IMG/VR virus record: IMGVR_UViG_2974674860_000001
Span: 1-64,000 of that record
Origin: a virus
Lineage: Duplodnaviria > Caudoviricetes
Direction: 5' to 3' (one strand)
DNA length: 64,000 nt
The notes below the pieces were generated by a model that worked only from the letters and a program-made list of their open reading frames with translations, made no database searches and was not told where the DNA came from. Below, piece by piece: positions 1 to 44,056 of the stretch; within the stretch, counting starts at the first letter, position 1; every line of letters begins with the position of its first letter. The translations under genes and the position numbers were made by a program.

Positions 1-75
1 TGGTGATGCCTGTGAGCTGGGGTTTTGGGGGGCTGTTAGACACCATATCCCACTCCTTCGCCCCTGGCTCGCGGC

Positions 76-91
76 TGTTGCATGTCTCGTG
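76..91 (+). promoter_or_regulatory. Operator-like motif copy 1 (TGTTGCATGTCTCGTG) with -10 TAGACT (95-100) of a probable leaderless promoter
   Basis: 1 mismatch to consensus TGTTGCGTGTCTCGTR; TANNNT hexamer ends 6 nt before ATG107. Confidence 0.7.
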
Positions 92-106
92 AGATAGACT
101 CGCGGC

Positions 107-538
107 ATGACGGCACAGACGACGACCTTCTTCGAGGGCAAGCGGGCGGACGGGTTCTTCCTCTTCACGGTCTACCCGCCGCGCCGCGAGGGGGAGGTGA
201 CCGACTACCAGCTGCACGTGGTACCGCCGGCGGCGGTAGAGACCAAGCACAACTTCACCGACGACTGCTGGTGCATCCCGCTCATCGCGCCGGCGAGAAG
301 CAACGGCCAGGGGACTGTCTGGCAGTACACCCACAACGCACAGGAGGAGCGTCACAGTGACGAAGCTGTTCGCGGCGACCGGGAAGATGCTGGGCAAGGA
401 GGCCTGGACCAAGGCCTGGCATCTGCCCTCGGATCACAAGGAGCAGAAGACGGCCAAGCGCCGGCGCCGCACCCGGGAGAAGAGGGCGTGGCGGACGGAG
501 GAGGCGACTGGTGGGACGACGGCCTTTTCGTGACATGA
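107..538 (+). CDS. hypothetical protein
   Basis: ORF with GC3-rich codons in its first 85 codons; stop overlaps ATG535 (ATGA); C-terminal half overlaps another ORF. Confidence 0.7.
   Translation: MTAQTTTFFEGKRADGFFLFTVYPPRREGEVTDYQLHVVPPAAVETKHNFTDDCWCIPLIAPARSNGQGTVWQYTHNAQEERHSDEAVRGDREDAGQGGLDQGLASALGSQGAEDGQAPAPHPGEEGVADGGGDWWDDGLFVT
357..533 (+). CDS. small basic protein (58 aa, MTKLFAATGKMLGKEAW...KRRRRTREKRAWR), nested in a different frame of 107-538
   Basis: GGAGGAG at 343-349, GTG357, typical codon usage. Confidence 0.55.
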   Translation: MTKLFAATGKMLGKEAWTKAWHLPSDHKEQKTAKRRRRTREKRAWRTEEATGGTTAFS

Positions 539-789
539 ACTCGATGCGCCTTGACGAGCTGATGTCGCAGTACCGGCCCGGCTCCCGCACCGACTGGTGG
601 CTCTGGTCTGACGAGTTTCAGGACCTCTGGAGTCGGCAGCCGGACTACATGGCCAAGCTGCTCGCGGACATCAACGCCAACGGCATCCACGACCCGATCT
701 GCCTCGGTACCGACGGCCGGATCTGGGATGGACACCACCGCATCGCAATCGCCACGGCCCTCGGGTTTCAGCGGGTGCCGGTCGAGTGA
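535..789 (+). CDS. ParB-like nuclease domain protein
   Basis: INANGIHDPI...IWDGHHRIAIA (DGHHR motif). Confidence 0.8.
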   Translation: MNSMRLDELMSQYRPGSRTDWWLWSDEFQDLWSRQPDYMAKLLADINANGIHDPICLGTDGRIWDGHHRIAIATALGFQRVPVE

Positions 790-959
790 GCGAGTACGTC
801 CCGGCCGCCGCCGAGATCAAGAAGCTCCGCGACGACACCCGTAGCACCCACCCCGACGGCTACTACCGAGCGCCGTACTGGCTCTGCCGTGACGCGCTGA
901 TCCAGGCCCGCGGCGACCAGTCCGCGGCGGTGGAGTTCATGTGTCTCGTCCGCGCATAA
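786..959 (+). CDS. 57-aa protein resembling the EF-Ts N-terminal (UBA-like) domain
   Basis: [11 protein letters not shown]...[19 protein letters not shown] follows the EF-Ts pattern AxxVKxLRxxTG...CKxALxxxxGDxxxAVExL; GTGA-coupled to the upstream gene. Confidence 0.65.
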
Positions 960-1039
960 ACCGCCACGACTGGCGCAACTTTCAGACCTGCCAGTGCGGG
1001 GAGCCGGGGTGCTTCTCGTACGAAAATCGAAGGAGGACA

Positions 1040-1846
1040 ATGCGTATCGACACACCCTATGAGGACCTTCTGTTCAGGGTCCTTGCCGACGGCGACTACA
1101 AGCCCGACCGCACCGGCACCGGCACCCGCAGCATCTTCGGAGCCCAGTTGCGCTACGACCTCGCGAAGGGCTTCCCGCTCCTCACCACCAAGAGGGTCCA
1201 CTTCAAATCGATCGCGTACGAGCTGCTCTGGTTCCTGCGCGGCGATACGAACATCGAATGGCTGAACGACCATGGTGTGACGATCTGGGACGAGTGGGCC
1301 GACCAGCGTGGTGACCTCGGGCCGATCTACGGCGAGCAGTGGCGAACGTGGTACGCCGGCGACTACCGGCCCGCCATCGACCAGATCTCGAACGCTGTGA
1401 AGCTCCTGCGGTCGGACCCCAACTCTCGACGCAACGTCGTCTCGGCATGGAACGTCGCAGACCTCGACGAGATGGCACTGCACCCGTGCCACATCATGTT
1501 CCAGCTGTACGTCGTCGACGGCCGACTCTCGCTCCAGGTCTACCAGCGCAGCGCCGATCTCTTCCTGGGTGTGCCGTTCAACATCGCCTCGTATGCGCTC
1601 CTGACGCACATGTTCGCCGCGGTGGCCGGCCTGGAGGTCGGCGAGCTGATCTGGACCGGCGGGGACTGCCACATCTACGCCAATCACTTCGAGCAGGTCT
1701 TGGAGCAGCGCGGCCGAACTGCCCGACCGTACCCGCAGCTGCGACTCCTGGCCGACCGGGACTCGATATTCGACTTCGAGTACGACGACTTCGAGATCCT
1801 CGGCTACGACCCGCACCCCGCGATCAAGGCACCGGTGGCCGTCTGA
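1040..1846 (+). CDS. thyA: thymidylate synthase
   Basis: [15 protein letters not shown], catalytic [29 protein letters not shown]; RBS GGAGG before ATG1040. Confidence 0.97.
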
Positions 1847-1977
1847 TGTGGGTCGCCTGGAGCGATCACGACGACCTGGACAAGCTCGAACCGATGACCT
1901 GGGACGAAGCCTTCGCCTACATGCGATGGCTGAGCACCCGCAACATCCCCGCCTACGCCCGAAAGGTGCCAGCGTGA
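1846..1977 (+). CDS. small hypothetical protein (43 aa)
   Basis: TGATG-coupled to thyA and GTGA-coupled to the next gene. Confidence 0.65.
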   Translation: MWVAWSDHDDLDKLEPMTWDEAFAYMRWLSTRNIPAYARKVPA

Positions 1978-2192
1978 TCAAGCGCCACCACTACCGCCTC
2001 GCCGAGTTCGACAAGGACGGCATCTGTGAAGATGAAGCTCGAGTGGAACTCTTCAATCACCTTGTGCAGCAAGGGATCGACCCAGAGGCAATCACCTTCC
2101 ATGATGCCGACCGCGCCCTGTTCAAGAACGGTGTCATCAGCCTCGATCCCGAGGGCGCCTACGTCCTCGTGACGGCGAGCGTCCGCCCGTGA
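1974..2192 (+). CDS. hypothetical protein
   Basis: GTGA coupling at both ends, codon usage. Confidence 0.7.
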   Translation: MIKRHHYRLAEFDKDGICEDEARVELFNHLVQQGIDPEAITFHDADRALFKNGVISLDPEGAYVLVTASVRP

Positions 2193-2479
2193 TCCTCCCG
2201 AACATGCCACCACGGTTCGCGCTTCTCGCATTCGACCTCGACACCAACGAGCTGATCTTCCGTGCCGAGCGCGCACAGTTTCTTCCGACCGAGCAGCCCG
2301 AGCGCGAATACCAGGACATCTGGGACCGCCAGGTCATCACCTGGTGCCCGAAGTACACCGACGTCCTCCTGCGCCTCCACGGCGACGAGCGCACCGGTGT
2401 CCAGTACACGCGGACGCTCACCAAGGCCCAGGTCGCCGAGATGAAGGAGGCGCTCGATGGGCTCGCCACCGTCGACTGA
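2189..2479 (+). CDS. hypothetical protein
   Basis: coupled ORF, codon usage. Confidence 0.7.
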   Translation: MILPNMPPRFALLAFDLDTNELIFRAERAQFLPTEQPEREYQDIWDRQVITWCPKYTDVLLRLHGDERTGVQYTRTLTKAQVAEMKEALDGLATVD

Positions 2480-2897
2480 ATCCTTCGCCACGTCGGCCCG
2501 AGCCCTGGGGGAGGCATTCCAGGCGCTGGGCAAGATGATCGAGGAGTTCGCCGCCAAGACACAGCTCGCCGACCTGATCTACAGCACGGACGGCTCGATC
2601 GCCGAGGGCGACCAGGTCACTGAGATCGAGGGCATCCAGCTCGTGCGTGTCCACGACCAGCGCCAGTGCGCCGGCCAAGCCTGCGTCATCCACAACCCGC
2701 TCGACCACCACATGCGCGACTGGACGCTGCATTGGCGCGACGACCGCAAGATCTTCGAGCGCATCTGCCCGAGCCATGGCTGCGGGCATCCCGATCCCTC
2801 CCAGTTCGACTACTGGGAGTCCGCCGGCCGCACCTGGGAGGCAGTCCACGGCTGCTGCGGGTGTTGCCAGTCAACCGAGAAAGCAGGTAGCTCATGA
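2457..2897 (+). CDS. Cys/His-rich putative metal-binding protein
   Basis: CAGQACVIHNP...ERICPSHGCGHPDP...HGCCGCC; start uncertain. Confidence 0.7.
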   Translation: MGSPPSTESFATSARALGEAFQALGKMIEEFAAKTQLADLIYSTDGSIAEGDQVTEIEGIQLVRVHDQRQCAGQACVIHNPLDHHMRDWTLHWRDDRKIFERICPSHGCGHPDPSQFDYWESAGRTWEAVHGCCGCCQSTEKAGSS

Positions 2898-3046
2898 ACG
2901 ACCGCTACGAAGAGGACCGCAAGCGCCGCCGCCGCGACGAGGAGGAGGCAGCCCGCCGCCGCCGGTCCCAGGACGCGACCAACCTCGCGATCAACACGGC
3001 CATCTCCGCGGCCACGACCGCGGCCATCACCTCGGCCACCTTCTGA
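2894..3046 (+). CDS. small hypothetical protein (50 aa; charged N-terminus, Ala/Thr-rich C-terminus)
   Basis: ATGA-coupled; MNDRYEEDRKRRRRDEEE... Confidence 0.65.
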   Translation: MNDRYEEDRKRRRRDEEEAARRRRSQDATNLAINTAISAATTAAITSATF

Positions 3047-3349
3047 GTGGCCTGGTCTGACACCTCCACGGCACTGACCCCCGAGTTCCGCCGCAACCGC
3101 CCTTTGGTGCTGCAGCGGGACCGGGGGCAGTGTCGTCTTCGCTATGACGGCTGCGCTGGCGAAGCGACAGAGGTCGATCACATCAAGAACCGAGCCGAGG
3201 GTGGGGATGACTCCATGGAGAATCTCCAGTCGGTCTGTCCTCATTGCCACACGATCAAGACTCGCCGCGAGTGGGCTCGTGCTCGCCGGCGCTCCCGGGA
3301 GGCGGCCAGGCATCCGTGGACCCGGCTCAAGCACCCCGGCCTGAAATAG
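3047..3349 (+). CDS. HNH endonuclease (terminase-associated type)
   Basis: C-x6-C...EVDHIK...NLQSVCPHCHTIKT; lies upstream of the terminase genes. Confidence 0.9.
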   Translation: MAWSDTSTALTPEFRRNRPLVLQRDRGQCRLRYDGCAGEATEVDHIKNRAEGGDDSMENLQSVCPHCHTIKTRREWARARRRSREAARHPWTRLKHPGLK

Positions 3350-3366
3350 TCGGCGTGTCGCCGCGC

Positions 3367-3382
3367 TGTTGCGTGTCTCGTG
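3367..3382 (+). promoter_or_regulatory. operator-like motif TGTTGCGTGTCTCGTG with -10 TACCTT (3386-3391)
   Basis: exact consensus; same AGA spacer to TANNNT as the copies at 76, 50925 and 60147. Confidence 0.75.
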
Positions 3383-3397
3383 AGATACCTTACGAAG

Positions 3398-3790
3398 ACA
3401 TCCCAGCGCCCGAGGAGTTGAGTATCGGGTGACACGCCTTGCCAGCGTGGTCGTCCCCGGTCAGAGCGGGAGGTGCACTCACGCCCGCAATTCGTTGCGT
3501 GCGTGGCGATCACAGCCCATCCACCCTGGATAAATAGAAGGACAGCCCGCCTGGGGGACGTGTGGCAGCGTAGCGGTGACTGTGAGCATCCCGGCCTGTA
3601 GGCAAGCGAGTCATACCCGCAGCCTGTTGTCTTCAAAGCGACCGATCCGACCGACGCGACCGACGCGATGGACAGCGCCCCGGCCCCTGCGAAAGTGGGG
3701 GGATCTGACCTTTGCGGTTACGGGGTTGCCGCGCTCCCTCACCTTCCCTCTGCTCCCTCTGCGATAGACGAAGAGCGGCCCTGGGTCAAT
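3398..3790 (+). ncRNA. candidate structured non-coding RNA A
   Basis: no credible ORF; UUCG and GAAA tetraloop hairpins; long-range pair 3452-3458/3554-3560; follows a promoter-like site. Confidence 0.35.
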
Positions 3791-3794
3791 AGAG

Positions 3795-3810
3795 TGTTGC
3801 GTGTCTCGTG
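3795..3810 (+). promoter_or_regulatory. operator-like motif with extended -10 TGtTAGACT (3809-3817)
   Basis: exact consensus; lies upstream of the tRNA-like element. Confidence 0.75.
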
Positions 3811-3886
3811 TTAGACTGGCTGCATGCTCGGAGGGCGCGATCCGCTCTTCGACGCAGGGGTTCAGCAACCGACGCTGACTCCCATA

Positions 3887-3963
3887 GCCTCCGTACGTCT
3901 CAATTGGCAGAGCGGCCCGTCTTGTGGGGAGTGTGTGGGTTCGAGTCCCACCGGGGGTTACCA
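3887..3963 (+). tRNA. tRNA-like element or pseudo-tRNA (possible Lys CTT) with a degenerate anticodon arm and encoded CCA
   Basis: acceptor GCCTCCG/CGGGGGT; D-arm CTC-AATTGGCA-GAG; perfect T-arm GTGGG-TTCGAGT-CCCAC; ends ACCA; anticodon stem only 3 bp. Confidence 0.7.
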
Positions 3964-3966
3964 GAC

Positions 3967-4267
3967 GCGATGGGGCGTCAACGCTCGGGTGCTGACAGTC
4001 ATCCGCGCAAAGGTCTCGGCGGCTTCGGGGTGTCATTGTCGTGACACCCGCGGCCCGGCTGGGGGTGGCCTCCAACTCACCCTGCAATCAGCTAGCCTGC
4101 GCCCCATCGCAGCCACACCTCCCGAGCCCAGGGGAAGTGCCGGATAGCTACCGGCGATGGGTGAAGCCTCGCGTGATCGATCGTACGAAGCGGCGCGAGG
4201 GGTCCGAGGTCTGGCCGGCCTCGCTTAATCTACCGGCCGGAACTTGAATCGGACTGGGACCGGCCGG
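3967..4267 (+). ncRNA. candidate structured non-coding RNA B, directly 3' of the tRNA-like element
   Basis: 11-bp stem 3967-3977/4100-4110 enclosing hairpin 4028-4049; further stems 4167-4173/4194-4200 and 4233-4240/4260-4267. Confidence 0.4.
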
Positions 4268-4288
4268 ATTCCAAGAGGCCTTGAATCT

Positions 4289-4304
4289 TGTTGCGTGTCT
4301 CGTA
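4289..4304 (+). promoter_or_regulatory. operator-like motif upstream of the terminase operon
   Basis: TGTTGCGTGTCTCGTA lies in the spacer of TTGAAT(4281)-16-TAGTCT(4303). Confidence 0.7.
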
Positions 4305-4537
4305 GTCTGGAAGATGTAAGCGGTGGGATGCGCCATCGTCGCCCGAAATGAAACCAGTAAAGGGCCAAAGCAACGCATACCCTTCGGGGCCGGTTTCTCC
4401 GCTGACGTCATGTCCACGCGGGCCGCATGCCTCCACCTCACATCCCGACATGGGAGTCCGACAAATGAGTCATTCCATATCTGTCTGTCGCGCAGCCGTT
4501 TTGACGGTGCGCGATTTTGTTGTACCTGGGGGCGGTC

Positions 4538-4999
4538 GTGGCTAAGACCGGACCCGCACCCAAGGACCCATCGCAGCTGCAGGGCCACTACTCGGCCGCC
4601 AAGCTGGCTGGCGACGACTGGGAAGAGATCGACCCCGACAAGGTGGTCGAAGCCCCCGAGATCCCCGACTGGATTGACGCCAGCCCGCGAGCTGTTGCGA
4701 TCTACGAATACCTCACATCCCTGCCTCAGTCCCAGCTCTACGGCGCTGGAACGTATTTCGAGCTGTGGATGTCGCTGCCCCTGATCGAGCGATACCTGTC
4801 TCGGCCGGGCGGCGAGACCTACAAGACCCTCGTCAGCACTCTCGGCACAGCCCTGCGCCTCACCGAGGACGACATGGCCAAGGCCCGCATCCGCATGGTC
4901 AAGGCCGACGAGCAGACTGACGACCCCTCCGAGACCAGTGAGCAGAACGCCCGAGTCATCGCGATGAAGGAACGTCGGAACCGACTCAAGGGGGCCTAG
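4538..4999 (+). CDS. terminase small subunit
   Basis: immediately upstream of terL; MAKTGPAPK N-terminus. Confidence 0.8.
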   Translation: MAKTGPAPKDPSQLQGHYSAAKLAGDDWEEIDPDKVVEAPEIPDWIDASPRAVAIYEYLTSLPQSQLYGAGTYFELWMSLPLIERYLSRPGGETYKTLVSTLGTALRLTEDDMAKARIRMVKADEQTDDPSETSEQNARVIAMKERRNRLKGA

Positions 5000-6736
5000 A
5001 TGCCCCACGACCTCGTGCGAGCACCTGGGCACGACCGAGAGGTCAGCCTCGGGTGGCTCGCCGTCGCATGGATGGAGTGGTTCTGCGTCCACGGCCCCGG
5101 CGACATCCAGGGTCAGCCAGTCGATCCGATGATCGACGAGTATGTCGGCTTCGTCGTCGACACCTACGCCCACGACTCCGAGGGCAAGCGCCTCTACGAC
5201 CACGTATTCCTCTCGCGCCCAAAGGGTTGCGCCAAGTCCGAAGTCGCCGCGCTCATCGCCATGTTCGAGGCGTTCGGACCCTGCCGCTTCGACGGATTCG
5301 CCGAGGGAGGCGAAGTCTTCCGTGATCCGTGGGGCTCGGGCTTCGAGTACACGTATCAGGCCGGCGAGCCCATGGGGAAGCGGCTGCAGACGCCGTTTAT
5401 TCGGTGCATGTCGACGACCGAGGACCAGTCCGGCCTCGTCTACGACACCATCTACCTCAACCTCACTGAGGGCCCGCTCCAGGTCGCGCTCCCGCGCAAG
5501 GACATGGCAGGCCTGACCCGCATCGTCATCCCCGGTGGCGGCGAGATCGTCCCCTCGTCGGCCGGCAGCGCATCGAAGGACGGCGGCAAGGACACGCTCG
5601 CCATCTTCGACGAGACGCACCTCTACAACCTCCCCGGCCTGCGGTCGATGTACAAGACCGTCTGCCGCAACCTCGTGAAGCGCCGCAAGACCGCTGGCAC
5701 CTTCGCCATCGAGACCACCACGATGTACGCCCCTGGTGAAGACTCGGTCGCCGAGCAGACCTACGACCTGGTCAAGAAGGTCAAGGCCGGCAAGGTCAAG
5801 CGCAACAAGCAGCTGTTCGACCACCGATTCGGCGACATCACCCCCGAGGATCTCCAGGACCAGGAGCTGGTCCGCAAGGCCCTCACGGAAGCCTACGGCG
5901 ACTGCACGTGGAACGACGTCGACGGCCTCATGGACGAGATCTACGGCGCCCGCGACCCCGGCGACATCACCTCGATGTTCCGCTACTGGTTCAACAGCCC
6001 GTTCAGCGCAGAGAACGCCTGGATCGCCTCCTGGGAATGGAATGGCGCCGGCCTCATCGACGAGGACGAACTCGACCCCGACGAGCCCAACCCCAACCCC
6101 GATCCCATCAAGCCTGGCGACACGATCGTGCTCGGCTTCGACGGTTCCCGCAAGCGCCGCAAGGGCGTCACCGACTCCACCGCGCTGATCGGCTGCCGCG
6201 TCAAGGACGGCGCCATCTTCGAGGTCGAGATCTGGGAGCAGCCCGCGGACTGGAAGGGGGCCGAGGGCTGGGAAGTCGACACCGGCCGCGTGGACCTCAA
6301 GATCCGCGAGACCTTCAAGAAGTACCGCGTCGTCGGCTTCTACGCCGACCCGGCGCTCTGGGAAACCTGGGTGGCCAAATGGGAGGCCCGCTACGGCGAC
6401 CGGCTCAAGCTCAAGTCCACCGGAACACACCCGATCGAGTGGTGGATGACCGGTGCGCGAGGCTCCAAAACCGTTGCCGCGCTTGAAGAGTTCCAGAACG
6501 CCGTCCTCGACCGCGAGTTGAAGCACTTCAACGAAGACATCCTCTCCGCGCACGTGCTCAACGCCCGCCGGTCCGAGACCACCCGCGGCGTGCAGATCCG
6601 CAAGGAGAACCCCGACTCACCACGCAAGATCGACGCCGCCGTTGCCGCGGTGCTCGCCTGGCAAGCCCGACTCGATGCCGTCTCCCGAGGCATCGCTGAG
6701 GCGCCGAAGAAGCGCATCGTTCGCAAGATCCGATAG
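5000..6736 (+). CDS. terminase large subunit
   Basis: Walker A-like RPKGCAKS, Walker B AIFDETH, nuclease LGFDGS...KIDAAVA. Confidence 0.95.
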   Translation: MPHDLVRAPGHDREVSLGWLAVAWMEWFCVHGPGDIQGQPVDPMIDEYVGFVVDTYAHDSEGKRLYDHVFLSRPKGCAKSEVAALIAMFEAFGPCRFDGFAEGGEVFRDPWGSGFEYTYQAGEPMGKRLQTPFIRCMSTTEDQSGLVYDTIYLNLTEGPLQVALPRKDMAGLTRIVIPGGGEIVPSSAGSASKDGGKDTLAIFDETHLYNLPGLRSMYKTVCRNLVKRRKTAGTFAIETTTMYAPGEDSVAEQTYDLVKKVKAGKVKRNKQLFDHRFGDITPEDLQDQELVRKALTEAYGDCTWNDVDGLMDEIYGARDPGDITSMFRYWFNSPFSAENAWIASWEWNGAGLIDEDELDPDEPNPNPDPIKPGDTIVLGFDGSRKRRKGVTDSTALIGCRVKDGAIFEVEIWEQPADWKGAEGWEVDTGRVDLKIRETFKKYRVVGFYADPALWETWVAKWEARYGDRLKLKSTGTHPIEWWMTGARGSKTVAALEEFQNAVLDRELKHFNEDILSAHVLNARRSETTRGVQIRKENPDSPRKIDAAVAAVLAWQARLDAVSRGIAEAPKKRIVRKIR

Positions 6737-41783: not shown

Positions 41784-41816
41784 GAAGGCCCCCCGTCATT
41801 GCGACGGGGGGCCTTC
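41784..41816. terminator. hairpin between the converging xseAB operon and tRNA-Lys
   Basis: perfect 14-bp stem GAAGGCCCCCCGTC/GACGGGGGGCCTTC. Confidence 0.85.
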
Positions 41817-41820
41817 TGCG

Positions 41821-42131
41821 TGCCCCCTCGGAGTTTCGATCTCCGCACCCGCGGATTAACTGTCCCACTTCGACTTTCGCCGCCGCAGTGCTCTGCGTTC
41901 GTGGTCTGGACTATCCCTTGACCGTAGGCTCGCGCCCGTAGGTCCGACCCGTCTAGTCTCTACACCTTCCGCCAGGCTGGCTGCCTGGCGACTTGGCTCG
42001 GGATTGCCAGCTGGCCGGGGCGGGCCAGGGGAGGGTTCCCCGAGTTTGAGTCGTGCCATCCGGTCGGTTTCCCGGCCGGCGCTCCTATTTGGTTGTGAAG
42101 TCCGCTGCTCTTCCGAATGAGCTAAGGGGGC
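41821..42131 (-). tRNA. tRNA-Lys(UUU) interrupted after U34 by a group I intron (exons 42131-42098 and 41859-41821)
   Basis: the spliced 73-mer has perfect stems: acceptor GCCCCCT/AGGGGGC, D GCTC/GAGC, anticodon GCGGA/TCCGC with loop CT-TTT-AA, T CGGAG/CTCCG; discriminator A73; no encoded CCA. Confidence 0.95.
41860..42097 (-). ncRNA. group I self-splicing intron, 238 nt, IC3/Azoarcus-like, no ORF
   Basis: P1 CUU/GAG with U.G at the splice site; P2 GAAA loop; P3 CGACUC/GGGUCG; P4 CUCGGG/CCCGAG; P6a; P7 GACUA/UAGUC (GUGUAGAGACUAGACGG ... AAGGGAUAGUCCAG); P9 GGC-GAAA-GUC; terminal omega-G. Confidence 0.95.
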
Positions 42132-42282
42132 GGGTCAGAGACTAGCAGGTGGGCGGCGGTGCGACCCAGCCGCGGCCCTCCTGCTCTAGCCCTCAGTTCA
42201 CGCACACCCACTTCGCGTATGCGGACTGTAAACGGACTCGGTTTCCGAAACCTGCGCTGAGCTGGGGTTTTATGGGGTGGCT

Positions 42283-42302
42283 CTGCGGATTAAAAGTCCG
42301 TA
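42283..42302 (-). other. probable attP core matching the anticodon arm of tRNA-Lys(UUU)
   Basis: minus strand TACGGACTTTTAATCCGCAG; 400 bp upstream of the integrase; no adjoining D- or T-arm. Confidence 0.75.
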
Positions 42303-42697
42303 GAATGGACCATGCACACGCTGCATCTTTGAGTCAAATGCGCAGGTCAGAGGCCATCATGTAGACTCAAGGTAGTCCAAGATCCCCCTTGGATAAACGG
42401 ACAGATAAACGGACTCGACGGACGGAGCCCCGCGATGCAGGTTCAGACCCACCTCAACCCCTCCACTCGTCGATGCCGGGCGACGGCGCTCGCCGCCGAC
42501 CGCGAGCCTGTGCTCGCTGGTGCCGATCGGCCCGACCTTCCGTCCTGGATTGCGCAGCCGGCGATTGTGCGTCAATGCGGAGGGCCCGCTGGACACTCGG
42601 GGGATCACGAATCTCACTGGAATGGGAAGCCGTTTCTCTGGCCCAATTCGAGCTACTGATTCCACTCACCTCAAGATTGCATTCAGGAGACTTAACA

Positions 42698-44056
42698 ATG
42701 GATGAAACGGGCACACGAGCGAAGCGCGGCAGCGGCGGTATTCGATACCGGGCCGACAAGGACATCTGGATCGCCAGTGAAACCGTCACGCTCAACGGGA
42801 AGAGGACGCGACTCGAAGCCACGGGCAAGACCGAGACGAAGGCCCGCGCTGCCATCGCGAAGAAGCGCAACGAGTTCATCCGCGGGAAGAAGAAGAAGGC
42901 GAGCCGAGGAACCGTCACGGAGTGGCTGAACAAGTTCACCGACGAGATCGCGATCCATGACATCCGGCCGGGCACGATGCGCTCGTACAAGAGCGTCATC
43001 AACAACCACATCATTCCGACGATCGGAGACAAGAAGCTGGCCACCCTGGAGCCCGCCGACGTGCGCACGATGCGCGACGAGATCATGCGTCGCTGTGAGG
43101 CCGCGGACAAGGCGGGAACATCCAAGCGCAAGGGTGCCGGGCCGAGCCGCGCTCGATACGCACAGACGGTCCTGTCGGTTGCGCTCGCGAGAGCCGTCCA
43201 GGATGAAGTGATTGATCGCAACGTGGCGAACAAGGAGTACGTGAAGAAGCTGCCCGCTCCCGACAAGGCAGTGGCCGCGCTCGATGCCGATCAGGCGAAG
43301 CGGTTCCTGCGCGATGTAGCCCGCAGCGAGGGCACCAACGCATCGCGGTGGGCGTTCGCGTTCCTGACGGGCGCACGGCAGGGCGAGATCCTCGGACTGG
43401 AGATCAACCGGCTCGACTTCACCTTCGACTCGTTGAAGCTCACCAAGCAGCTCCAGATCCTGCCGAACCGCCACGGCTGTGGTGAGCAGAATGAAGACGG
43501 GACATGGCCGTGCGGGAAGACCGCTCCCCGTGCGTGCAAAGACCGTGAGTTCGACATCTCGCCGACGTACGCCGAGCAGGTGAAGGTGCTCCACGGAAGC
43601 CTCGCCCTGGTCCCCACCAAGACGAAGATGTCGAAGCGCGACCTGCCGATGGTGGGGCCGTTGAAGAAGATCCTCCAGGCGCACCTGGAGGCCACGGCGC
43701 ATATGCCCAACCCGCACGGCCTGGTGTGGCGAAACGAGGACGGTTCGCCGCTGCAGCCGCGCAGTGACTTCGATACGTGGTCGGACGCTCTGACGAAGAG
43801 CGGCTTTGATCACATCAAGCTGCACTCGTCGAGGTCGAGCACGGCCAGCATCATGAGCGACATGGGAATCGATCGCGAGGTGATCGCGGAGATCCTTGGA
43901 CATACCAATCTGGAGACCACGGCTGGCTACGTTGCGGTGGGTGACAAGTTCCGGCGGGATGCGCTCGGAAAGGTCGGCGGTGCGCTGATGCTGGAGCTGT
44001 TCGGAGATGACGATGGTGACGACAACGCCCCGACGACAGAAGCCATCGGGGCGTGA
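42698..44056 (+). CDS. int: tyrosine integrase
   Basis: N-terminal arm-binding domain; GARQGE (R), KT, HSSR, LGHT, TAGY; RBS AGGAG before ATG42698. Confidence 0.95.
   Translation: MDETGTRAKRGSGGIRYRADKDIWIASETVTLNGKRTRLEATGKTETKARAAIAKKRNEFIRGKKKKASRGTVTEWLNKFTDEIAIHDIRPGTMRSYKSVINNHIIPTIGDKKLATLEPADVRTMRDEIMRRCEAADKAGTSKRKGAGPSRARYAQTVLSVALARAVQDEVIDRNVANKEYVKKLPAPDKAVAALDADQAKRFLRDVARSEGTNASRWAFAFLTGARQGEILGLEINRLDFTFDSLKLTKQLQILPNRHGCGEQNEDGTWPCGKTAPRACKDREFDISPTYAEQVKVLHGSLALVPTKTKMSKRDLPMVGPLKKILQAHLEATAHMPNPHGLVWRNEDGSPLQPRSDFDTWSDALTKSGFDHIKLHSSRSSTASIMSDMGIDREVIAEILGHTNLETTAGYVAVGDKFRRDALGKVGGALMLELFGDDDGDDNAPTTEAIGA

Follow-up and report, generated by a model that had tools for sequence, protein, structure and literature searches.

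The window analysed here comprises the first 64,000 nucleotides of a 90,490-bp IMG/VR record (IMGVR_UViG_2974674860_000001), which is rated complete and derives from a high-G+C tailed phage; the window begins at base 1 of the record, and the recorded phages most closely related to it, Mollymur, Bantam and DatBoi, infect Gordonia terrae. At the left genome end, five plus-strand genes form a chain in which stops and starts overlap. The first gene (107–538) encodes a phrog_12377-like N-domain recognised by its PHROG match, and its tail overlaps a gene for a small basic protein (357–533; phrog_5655-like, E = 4.9e-5). These are followed by a ParB-like nuclease-domain gene (535–789; phrog_7527, E = 1.1e-13, and ParB-like families), by a gene for a 57-residue protein (786–959, stop codon included), and by a thymidylate synthase gene (941–1846; PF00303, E = 2e-114). 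The ATG of the ParB-like gene at 535 overlaps the stop of ORF 107–538, and its homologue in Mollymur is annotated as a ParB-like nuclease domain protein. GC3 in the frame of the small basic gene is 0.90–1.00 over frame-plot windows 340–460. In all four phages, the frame of the first gene is stop-free up to the small basic gene and runs over it (window 107–538 over 357–533; L001:93–677; L002:111–683), with the coding frame by GC3 switching away from it at ∼330.

The 57-residue gene, which we call the TS-N gene after the EF-Ts N-terminal (TS-N) domain that its product resembles, was characterised from its reading frame, GC3, selection, homology and predicted fold. It starts with GTG at 786–788, the earliest start codon past the preceding in-frame stop, and this GTG overlaps the TGA (787–789) of the ParB-like ORF in a GTGA junction. 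Its GC3 is 0.93 in frame, and the GC3 frame plot changes to this frame at ∼775. Compared with the copies in Bantam and DatBoi, changes fall mostly at third codon positions and dN/dS is 0.16–0.47. ORF 786–959 is thus a real, conserved gene under purifying selection. A sequence-only reading of this DNA had given the same coordinates and the same 57-residue translation, both of which we reproduced exactly, and the coupling to the ParB-like gene that it described is present as the overlap above. Searching a public viral structure library, we found that the protein is 100% identical to an 'uncharacterised protein' of Gordonia phage Daredevil, so that the window represents Daredevil or a near-identical phage. 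Daredevil belongs to Cluster DL and plates on G. terrae (PMC10865867).

The TS-N gene is an accessory phage gene, since Mollymur, the closest relative, joins its ParB-like gene straight to the thymidylate synthase frame: the ParB-like stop directly overlaps the start of that frame, at the point where the TS-N gene begins in the window, and a tblastn search with the 57-residue protein found no copy in Mollymur. In Bantam and DatBoi it is the ParB-like gene that is absent, and the TS-N gene comes after the small basic gene. No sigma-70-like promoter was found in positions 1–3500, and the sole terminator-like site in the same interval lies on the minus strand and is within the number expected from shuffled sequences. 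From this arrangement we infer that the TS-N gene is expressed within the overlapping gene chain.

Relatives of the protein are few. The Bantam and DatBoi copies are 62% and 59% identical to it, and one further true relative, P0007, came from an exhaustive HMMER scan of 1.84 billion representative proteins; it is also 57 residues long and is 47% identical. P0007 is encoded on short, actinophage-like metagenomic contigs of much lower G+C, with a methyltransferase-like gene upstream and a convergent lsr2 gene downstream; its gene has its own GTG start and is followed by a hairpin with a T-run. The family as found therefore has four members, mutually about 44–60% identical, with 19 invariant residues, and two of the members are clearly stand-alone. 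A collection of 5.8 billion proteins held only the protein itself and P0007, with no longer forms; a homologue search of IMG/VR returned Bantam only, and none were found in GTDB genomes. Two further candidates from the scan of representative proteins, P0005 (2521 residues) and P0006 (203 residues), were rejected because they are highly repetitive and align to a short stretch of the query only. Single-sequence searches of Pfam, PHROGs, PDB sequences and the ESM Atlas with the 57-residue protein were empty, and a single-sequence AlphaFold2 model of it (pLDDT 73) had no Foldseek match.

At the level of profiles, similarity to EF-Ts N-domains is significant. A DNA pattern for L-R-x-x-T-G-A-G-M served to draw 112 distinct EF-Ts N-domains from diverse bacteria; it fixed seven columns, so that the invariance of these columns in the EF-Ts set is by construction. 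An hhalign comparison of the four-member family with this set gave a probability of 97% (P = 8.5e-11) over 40 aligned columns, in an alignment that holds a single 9-residue insertion; as controls, P rose to 0.88 with the target reversed, and among 60 column-shuffled targets the best had E = 0.018. Applied without filters to all 1068 six-frame segments of the window, an HMM of the EF-Ts N-domain picked out ORF 786–959 only (E = 3.5e-4), the next-best segment having E = 0.13. In the other direction, the best natural match of the family profile among 177,635 PDB sequences was EF-Ts of M. tuberculosis (E = 0.008), with the whole domain aligned and one gap, and EF-Ts of E. coli matched with E = 0.015. 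Designed TPR proteins that topped this search were rejected, as they share only a short G-D-x-x-x-A-I-E-Y motif whose score is summed over repeats. One of the four family members matches the Pfam UBA/TS-N model PF00627 (E = 7e-4); the window's own protein had no Pfam hit at E up to 10, nor was it found when PF00627 and PF25025 (EF-Ts_N) were searched over the whole phage genome. Of the 14 EF-Ts N-domains with the highest scores against the family profile, 8 are actinobacterial, and because Bacteroidota and Bacillota also rank high beside them, we claim no donor for the domain.

To compare structures, we modelled the protein with AlphaFold2 from the four family sequences alone, in an alignment free of EF-Ts. 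The model has a pLDDT of 86 (82–86 across five models) and consists of a helix at residues 8–17, a short hairpin at 20–27, and helices at 31–41 and 45–56, that is, the compact three-helix UBA-like fold (about 40–55 residues) of a TS-N domain. In a Foldseek search of the PDB, the top 11 matches were all EF-Ts N-domains (TM 0.61–0.67, probability 0.91–1.0, rmsd 1.5–2.3 Å and 1.5–1.8 Å for most), with UBA and CUE domains ranking next; the E-values are only 0.1–1 because the domain is very small. VIA-align superposed the model on bacterial EF-Ts chains with Z of 7.0–8.1, rmsd of 0.6–1.5 Å and 35–38% identity, on bovine mitochondrial EF-Ts with Z of 7.0 and 24% identity, and on UBA domains with Z of at most 6.8 and 12–20% identity. 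Z values of such size can by themselves come from common helical arrangements. The case for the fold rests on the level of identity and on its agreement with the sequence profiles. Taken together, the modelling supports an EF-Ts N-domain three-helix fold for the 57-residue protein, with EF-Ts matches ranking ahead of UBA domains. On the strength of the profile–profile comparison, the profile search of PDB sequences and the fold search with a model free of EF-Ts sequences, the protein is very probably a divergent, stand-alone TS-N homologue.

The motifs of the TS-N domain can be followed along the gene. Helix 1 (residues 8–17, positions 807–836), delimited by the AlphaFold2 model and by comparison of alignment columns, carries the motif K-x-L-R-x-x-T, in which R15 is shared by all four family members and corresponds to R13 of M. 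tuberculosis EF-Ts. In helix 2 (residues 31–41, positions 876–908), a hydrophobic pair and an invariant C34 are followed by A37-L38, common to EF-Ts, and R35 aligns with EF-Ts K24. A G-D turn (residues 43–44) leads into helix 3 (residues 45–56, positions 918–953) with A-[IV]-E-x-[LM]-R, both common to EF-Ts; helices 2 and 3 were each placed by hhalign, the model and the column comparison. At 11 of the 21 EF-Ts positions conserved at 80% or above, the family majority residue is identical, including L-R and T in helix 1, C-x-x-A-L in helix 2, the G-D turn, and A and R in helix 3. In the crystal structure of the M. tuberculosis EF-Tu/EF-Ts complex, R13 of EF-Ts helix 1 bonds EF-Tu P114 and E155, K24 of helix 2 bonds EF-Tu D144 and D145, and mutation of R13 disturbs the complex (PMC9529903). 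Where EF-Ts has K24, two of the four family members have R, and Bantam and DatBoi carry T or A.

The loop between helices 1 and 2 is where the family departs from EF-Ts. Of the T-G-A-G-M-M turn only the T is retained, and the place of G-A-G is taken by an insertion of 9 residues (10 in DatBoi, 12 in P0007), which in the window occupies residues 21–29 (positions 846–872) and is seen in the hhalign gap, the AlphaFold2 model and the family alignment. Together with residue 20, the insertion is predicted to form a β-hairpin with strands at 20–22 and 25–27; invariant residues are Y26 and A29 inside the insertion and, on its two sides, S20 and P30. Where EF-Ts has its two Met residues after the turn, the four members have aromatic or hydrophobic residues (Y-W, Y-W, I-W and V-S), and the acidic residue that follows the Met pair in EF-Ts is an invariant Leu. 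Since both EF-Tu contact residues flank the loop, we infer that the hairpin sits at, or adjoins, the EF-Tu-facing end of the domain, from where it could either enlarge the EF-Tu interface or turn the domain towards a different partner. The initial reading had proposed likeness to the EF-Ts N-domain, which the profile and structure comparisons bore out (the hhalign match with its clean controls, and the Foldseek ranking), and had described the GAGMM loop as replaced by a longer insertion, which holds for the G-A-G turn only, as the Met positions are merely substituted.

Set against EF-Ts itself (N-domain at residues 1–54 in E. coli, PDB 1EFU and 4PC1-7; M. tuberculosis, 7VMX), the phage protein shares the three-helix fold, the motifs K-x-L-R-x-x-T, C-[KR]-x-A-L, G-D and A-[IV]-E-x-[LM]-R, and the EF-Tu-contacting arginine. 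It differs in having a 9-residue hairpin for the G-A-G turn and the invariant Leu for the acidic residue after the Met pair, and in having no core, dimerisation or C-terminal modules, and so no exchange activity. Eukaryote-type UBA, CUE and NAC UBA domains belong to the same three-helix fold class (Z 5–6.8), but they are only 12–20% identical and do not have the TS-N motifs. The M-G-F/Y loop of UBA domains serves ubiquitin binding; the phage protein has the hairpin in its place and is probably not of the ubiquitin-binding UBA type.

Other phage genes, too, encode pieces of EF-Ts. Just upstream of ssb in Ralstonia phage RSP15, we found an unannotated 70-residue ORF (L155:1156–1368, that is, NC_030948.1 110782–110994) that encodes a close copy of the EF-Ts N-domain (∼49% identity to that of a Mycobacterium EF-Ts) with a C-x-x-C tail after it. 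Like the TS-N gene, it is a small phage copy of the EF-Ts N-domain without the catalytic core; unlike it, the RSP15 copy has T-N-E-T-M-M for T-G-A-G-M-M, has no insertion, and is near enough to EF-Ts for BLAST or Pfam, whereas the actinophage family is far more divergent and carries the hairpin. Caulobacter phage Colossus gp247 is likewise a phage-encoded EF-Ts fragment, a truncated EF-Ts of 98 residues proposed to modulate host translation (PMC3556154). It consists of core subdomain N with the Phe81-type GDP-expelling residue and has no TS-N domain, and is thus the complementary piece of EF-Ts (PMC3556154). It was also the only published phage EF-Ts fragment found in our literature searches, which returned no description of stand-alone TS-N proteins in phages.

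The 57 residues of the protein end after helix 3 and include no EF-Ts core domain, nor did a Pfam search find the EF_TS core anywhere near ORF 786–959. In EF-Ts, the T-D-F-V wedge of the core (Asp80/Phe81 in E. coli) is needed to expel GDP. Because the catalytic core with this wedge is absent, the 57-residue protein is not an EF-Ts and cannot catalyse nucleotide exchange. What it has kept is the part that grips EF-Tu, and we give host EF-Tu about an even chance of being its partner. In such a mechanism, the protein would dock without catalysis on domain I of host EF-Tu, on the face normally used by the EF-Ts N-domain, by way of K12, R15 and T18, which helix 1 has retained, and of the hydrophobic pair, C34 and R35 in helix 2. 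The interface would be enlarged by the hairpin so that a lone small domain binds well enough. With this face occupied on a subset of EF-Tu molecules, access to them could change for EF-Ts or for other binders, among which are defence proteins that cleave EF-Tu or recruit it; alternatively, EF-Tu could be tethered to a second partner through the hairpin.

EF-Tu makes up 6–10% of the E. coli proteome and is among the most abundant cell proteins (as cited in PMC13581612). Bulk competition with EF-Ts is therefore unlikely, as it would demand very large amounts of a small accessory protein, and the same abundance speaks against any simple titration (PMC13581612). Shielding or marking of a subset of EF-Tu molecules by the 57-residue protein is possible. 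Several features of the sequence argue against docking on EF-Tu: the altered G-A-G-M-M-D stretch is invariant or nearly so in the EF-Ts comparison set (for the pattern columns by construction), the hairpin lies between two known contact residues where it might clash or create a new specificity, the K24 equivalent is T or A in Bantam and DatBoi, and the window's own protein reaches no Pfam model.

The main rival of EF-Tu docking is that a TS-N scaffold of EF-Ts descent has been retargeted by the hairpin to some other host or phage partner, which we consider possible though somewhat unlikely. In its favour, the stretch most divergent from EF-Ts is precisely the loop beside the reported EF-Tu contact residues (PMC9529903), the hairpin's own invariant S20, Y26, A29 and P30 point to a selected function, and UBA-like folds bind many different partners. 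Yet the surface motif K-x-L-R-x-x-T and the G-D turn are invariant or nearly so among members that are only 44–60% identical, and the fold alone does not need these motifs, since UBA domains do not have them. Moreover, no consistent neighbour suggests a phage partner, as the neighbouring genes differ between Bantam, the window and the metagenomic contig.

A broader reading builds on docking on EF-Tu and is in our view unlikely as a whole: unrelated phages, such as actinophages and Ralstonia phages, would have acquired the EF-Ts N-domain time and again as a portable module for docking on EF-Tu, and the Gordonia copy would serve as a counter-defence factor. The protein would occupy the helix-D face of EF-Tu and deny it to immune proteins that cleave or recruit EF-Tu, such as Lit-type proteases, type IV Thoeris and Avs7-like sensors, with the hairpin giving the lone domain extra affinity. 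Lit and type IV Thoeris cleave EF-Tu, Avs7 has it built in and the Q-beta replicase borrows it (PMC13581612), and it is in this sense a recurring battleground between phages and bacteria. A phage-encoded copy of just the domain with which EF-Ts grips EF-Tu would open a new route to the translation machinery, and if EF-Tu is not bound, the family would still represent a translation-factor domain that phages have reused as a small binding scaffold. The system is tractable, with a protein of 57 residues, a culturable host in Gordonia terrae, and a natural near-isogenic comparator in Mollymur, which does not have the gene.

A further alternative concerns the form of the protein. In Bantam and DatBoi, the frame of the first-gene N-domain passes stop-free into the TS-N frame, and the TS-N segment has CTG at the position of the window's GTG, as if TS-N belonged to a larger protein and formed the C-terminal part of gp1 as annotated (194 and 190 residues, respectively). 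On this view, insertion of the ParB-like gene would have severed the window ORF from the larger protein as a fragment, and the domain would be a mere tether for the N-domain protein. We regard this as quite improbable, because the middle of gp1 codes in the frame of the small basic gene (phrog_5655) by GC3, so that the annotated gp1 spans three coding frames; in addition, a strong Shine–Dalgarno-like run precedes the CTG, an in-frame GTG lies six codons upstream, and the window and metagenomic P0007 copies are stand-alone by necessity. Some read-through fusion protein may possibly be made in Bantam and DatBoi; as the main form in Bantam, the gp1 fusion was rejected on the GC3 frame plots. A fusion to the ParB-like protein by −1 frameshifting was also discarded, as no slippery heptamer was seen by eye before the stop.

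Finally, that ORF 786–959 is a chance ORF or a decaying, functionless piece of a captured host tsf gene is close to refuted: the ORF is small, its product matches no curated family and the TS-N-like family has very few members, but selection is purifying with third-position changes dominant, length and 19 residues are kept in four lineages (one of much lower G+C), starts and stops overlap exactly with those of the neighbouring genes, and the fold is predicted with confidence.

Elsewhere in the window, a stretch of ∼1.1 kb at 3350–4500 has no convincing plus-strand ORF and no Rfam family at gathering score; it is flanked by an HNH gene (3047–3349) and by the gene for the terminase small subunit (about 4517–4999), beyond which lies that for the large subunit (5000–6736). 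Daredevil is reported to form clear plaques and to integrate at the host tRNA-Lys-TTT gene, which it does not rebuild, and to encode no tRNA of its own (PMC10865867). ARAGORN detected no tRNA in the window and a scan against Rfam at gathering score no family, both being scans not designed for a tRNA interrupted by a long intron, as considered for the integrase region (41784–44056).

The gene downstream of the TS-N gene shows a conserved feature of its own. The Pfam thymidylate synthase domain starts at ATG 1040, and an in-frame extension runs back from there to GTG 941, so that it overlaps the TS-N gene by 19 nt in the window. This extension of ∼100 nt before the usual start (941–1039) is conserved at the protein level in four phages (window 941–1039; L001:674–763, L002:680–769, L003:762–851) and reads M-(S)-R-P-R ... 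H-D-W-R-N-[YF], with 10 further residues after the last of these. In three of the four phages, the start of the extension overlaps the stop of the preceding gene as ATGA or GTGA, while in the window it lies 19 nt inside that gene; the overlapped stop is that of the TS-N gene in Bantam and DatBoi and that of the ParB-like gene in Mollymur. The annotated thymidylate synthase starts omit the conserved extension, and judging from its conservation in these reading frames, ThyA in these phages may have a Cys-rich N-terminal extension or two start sites.
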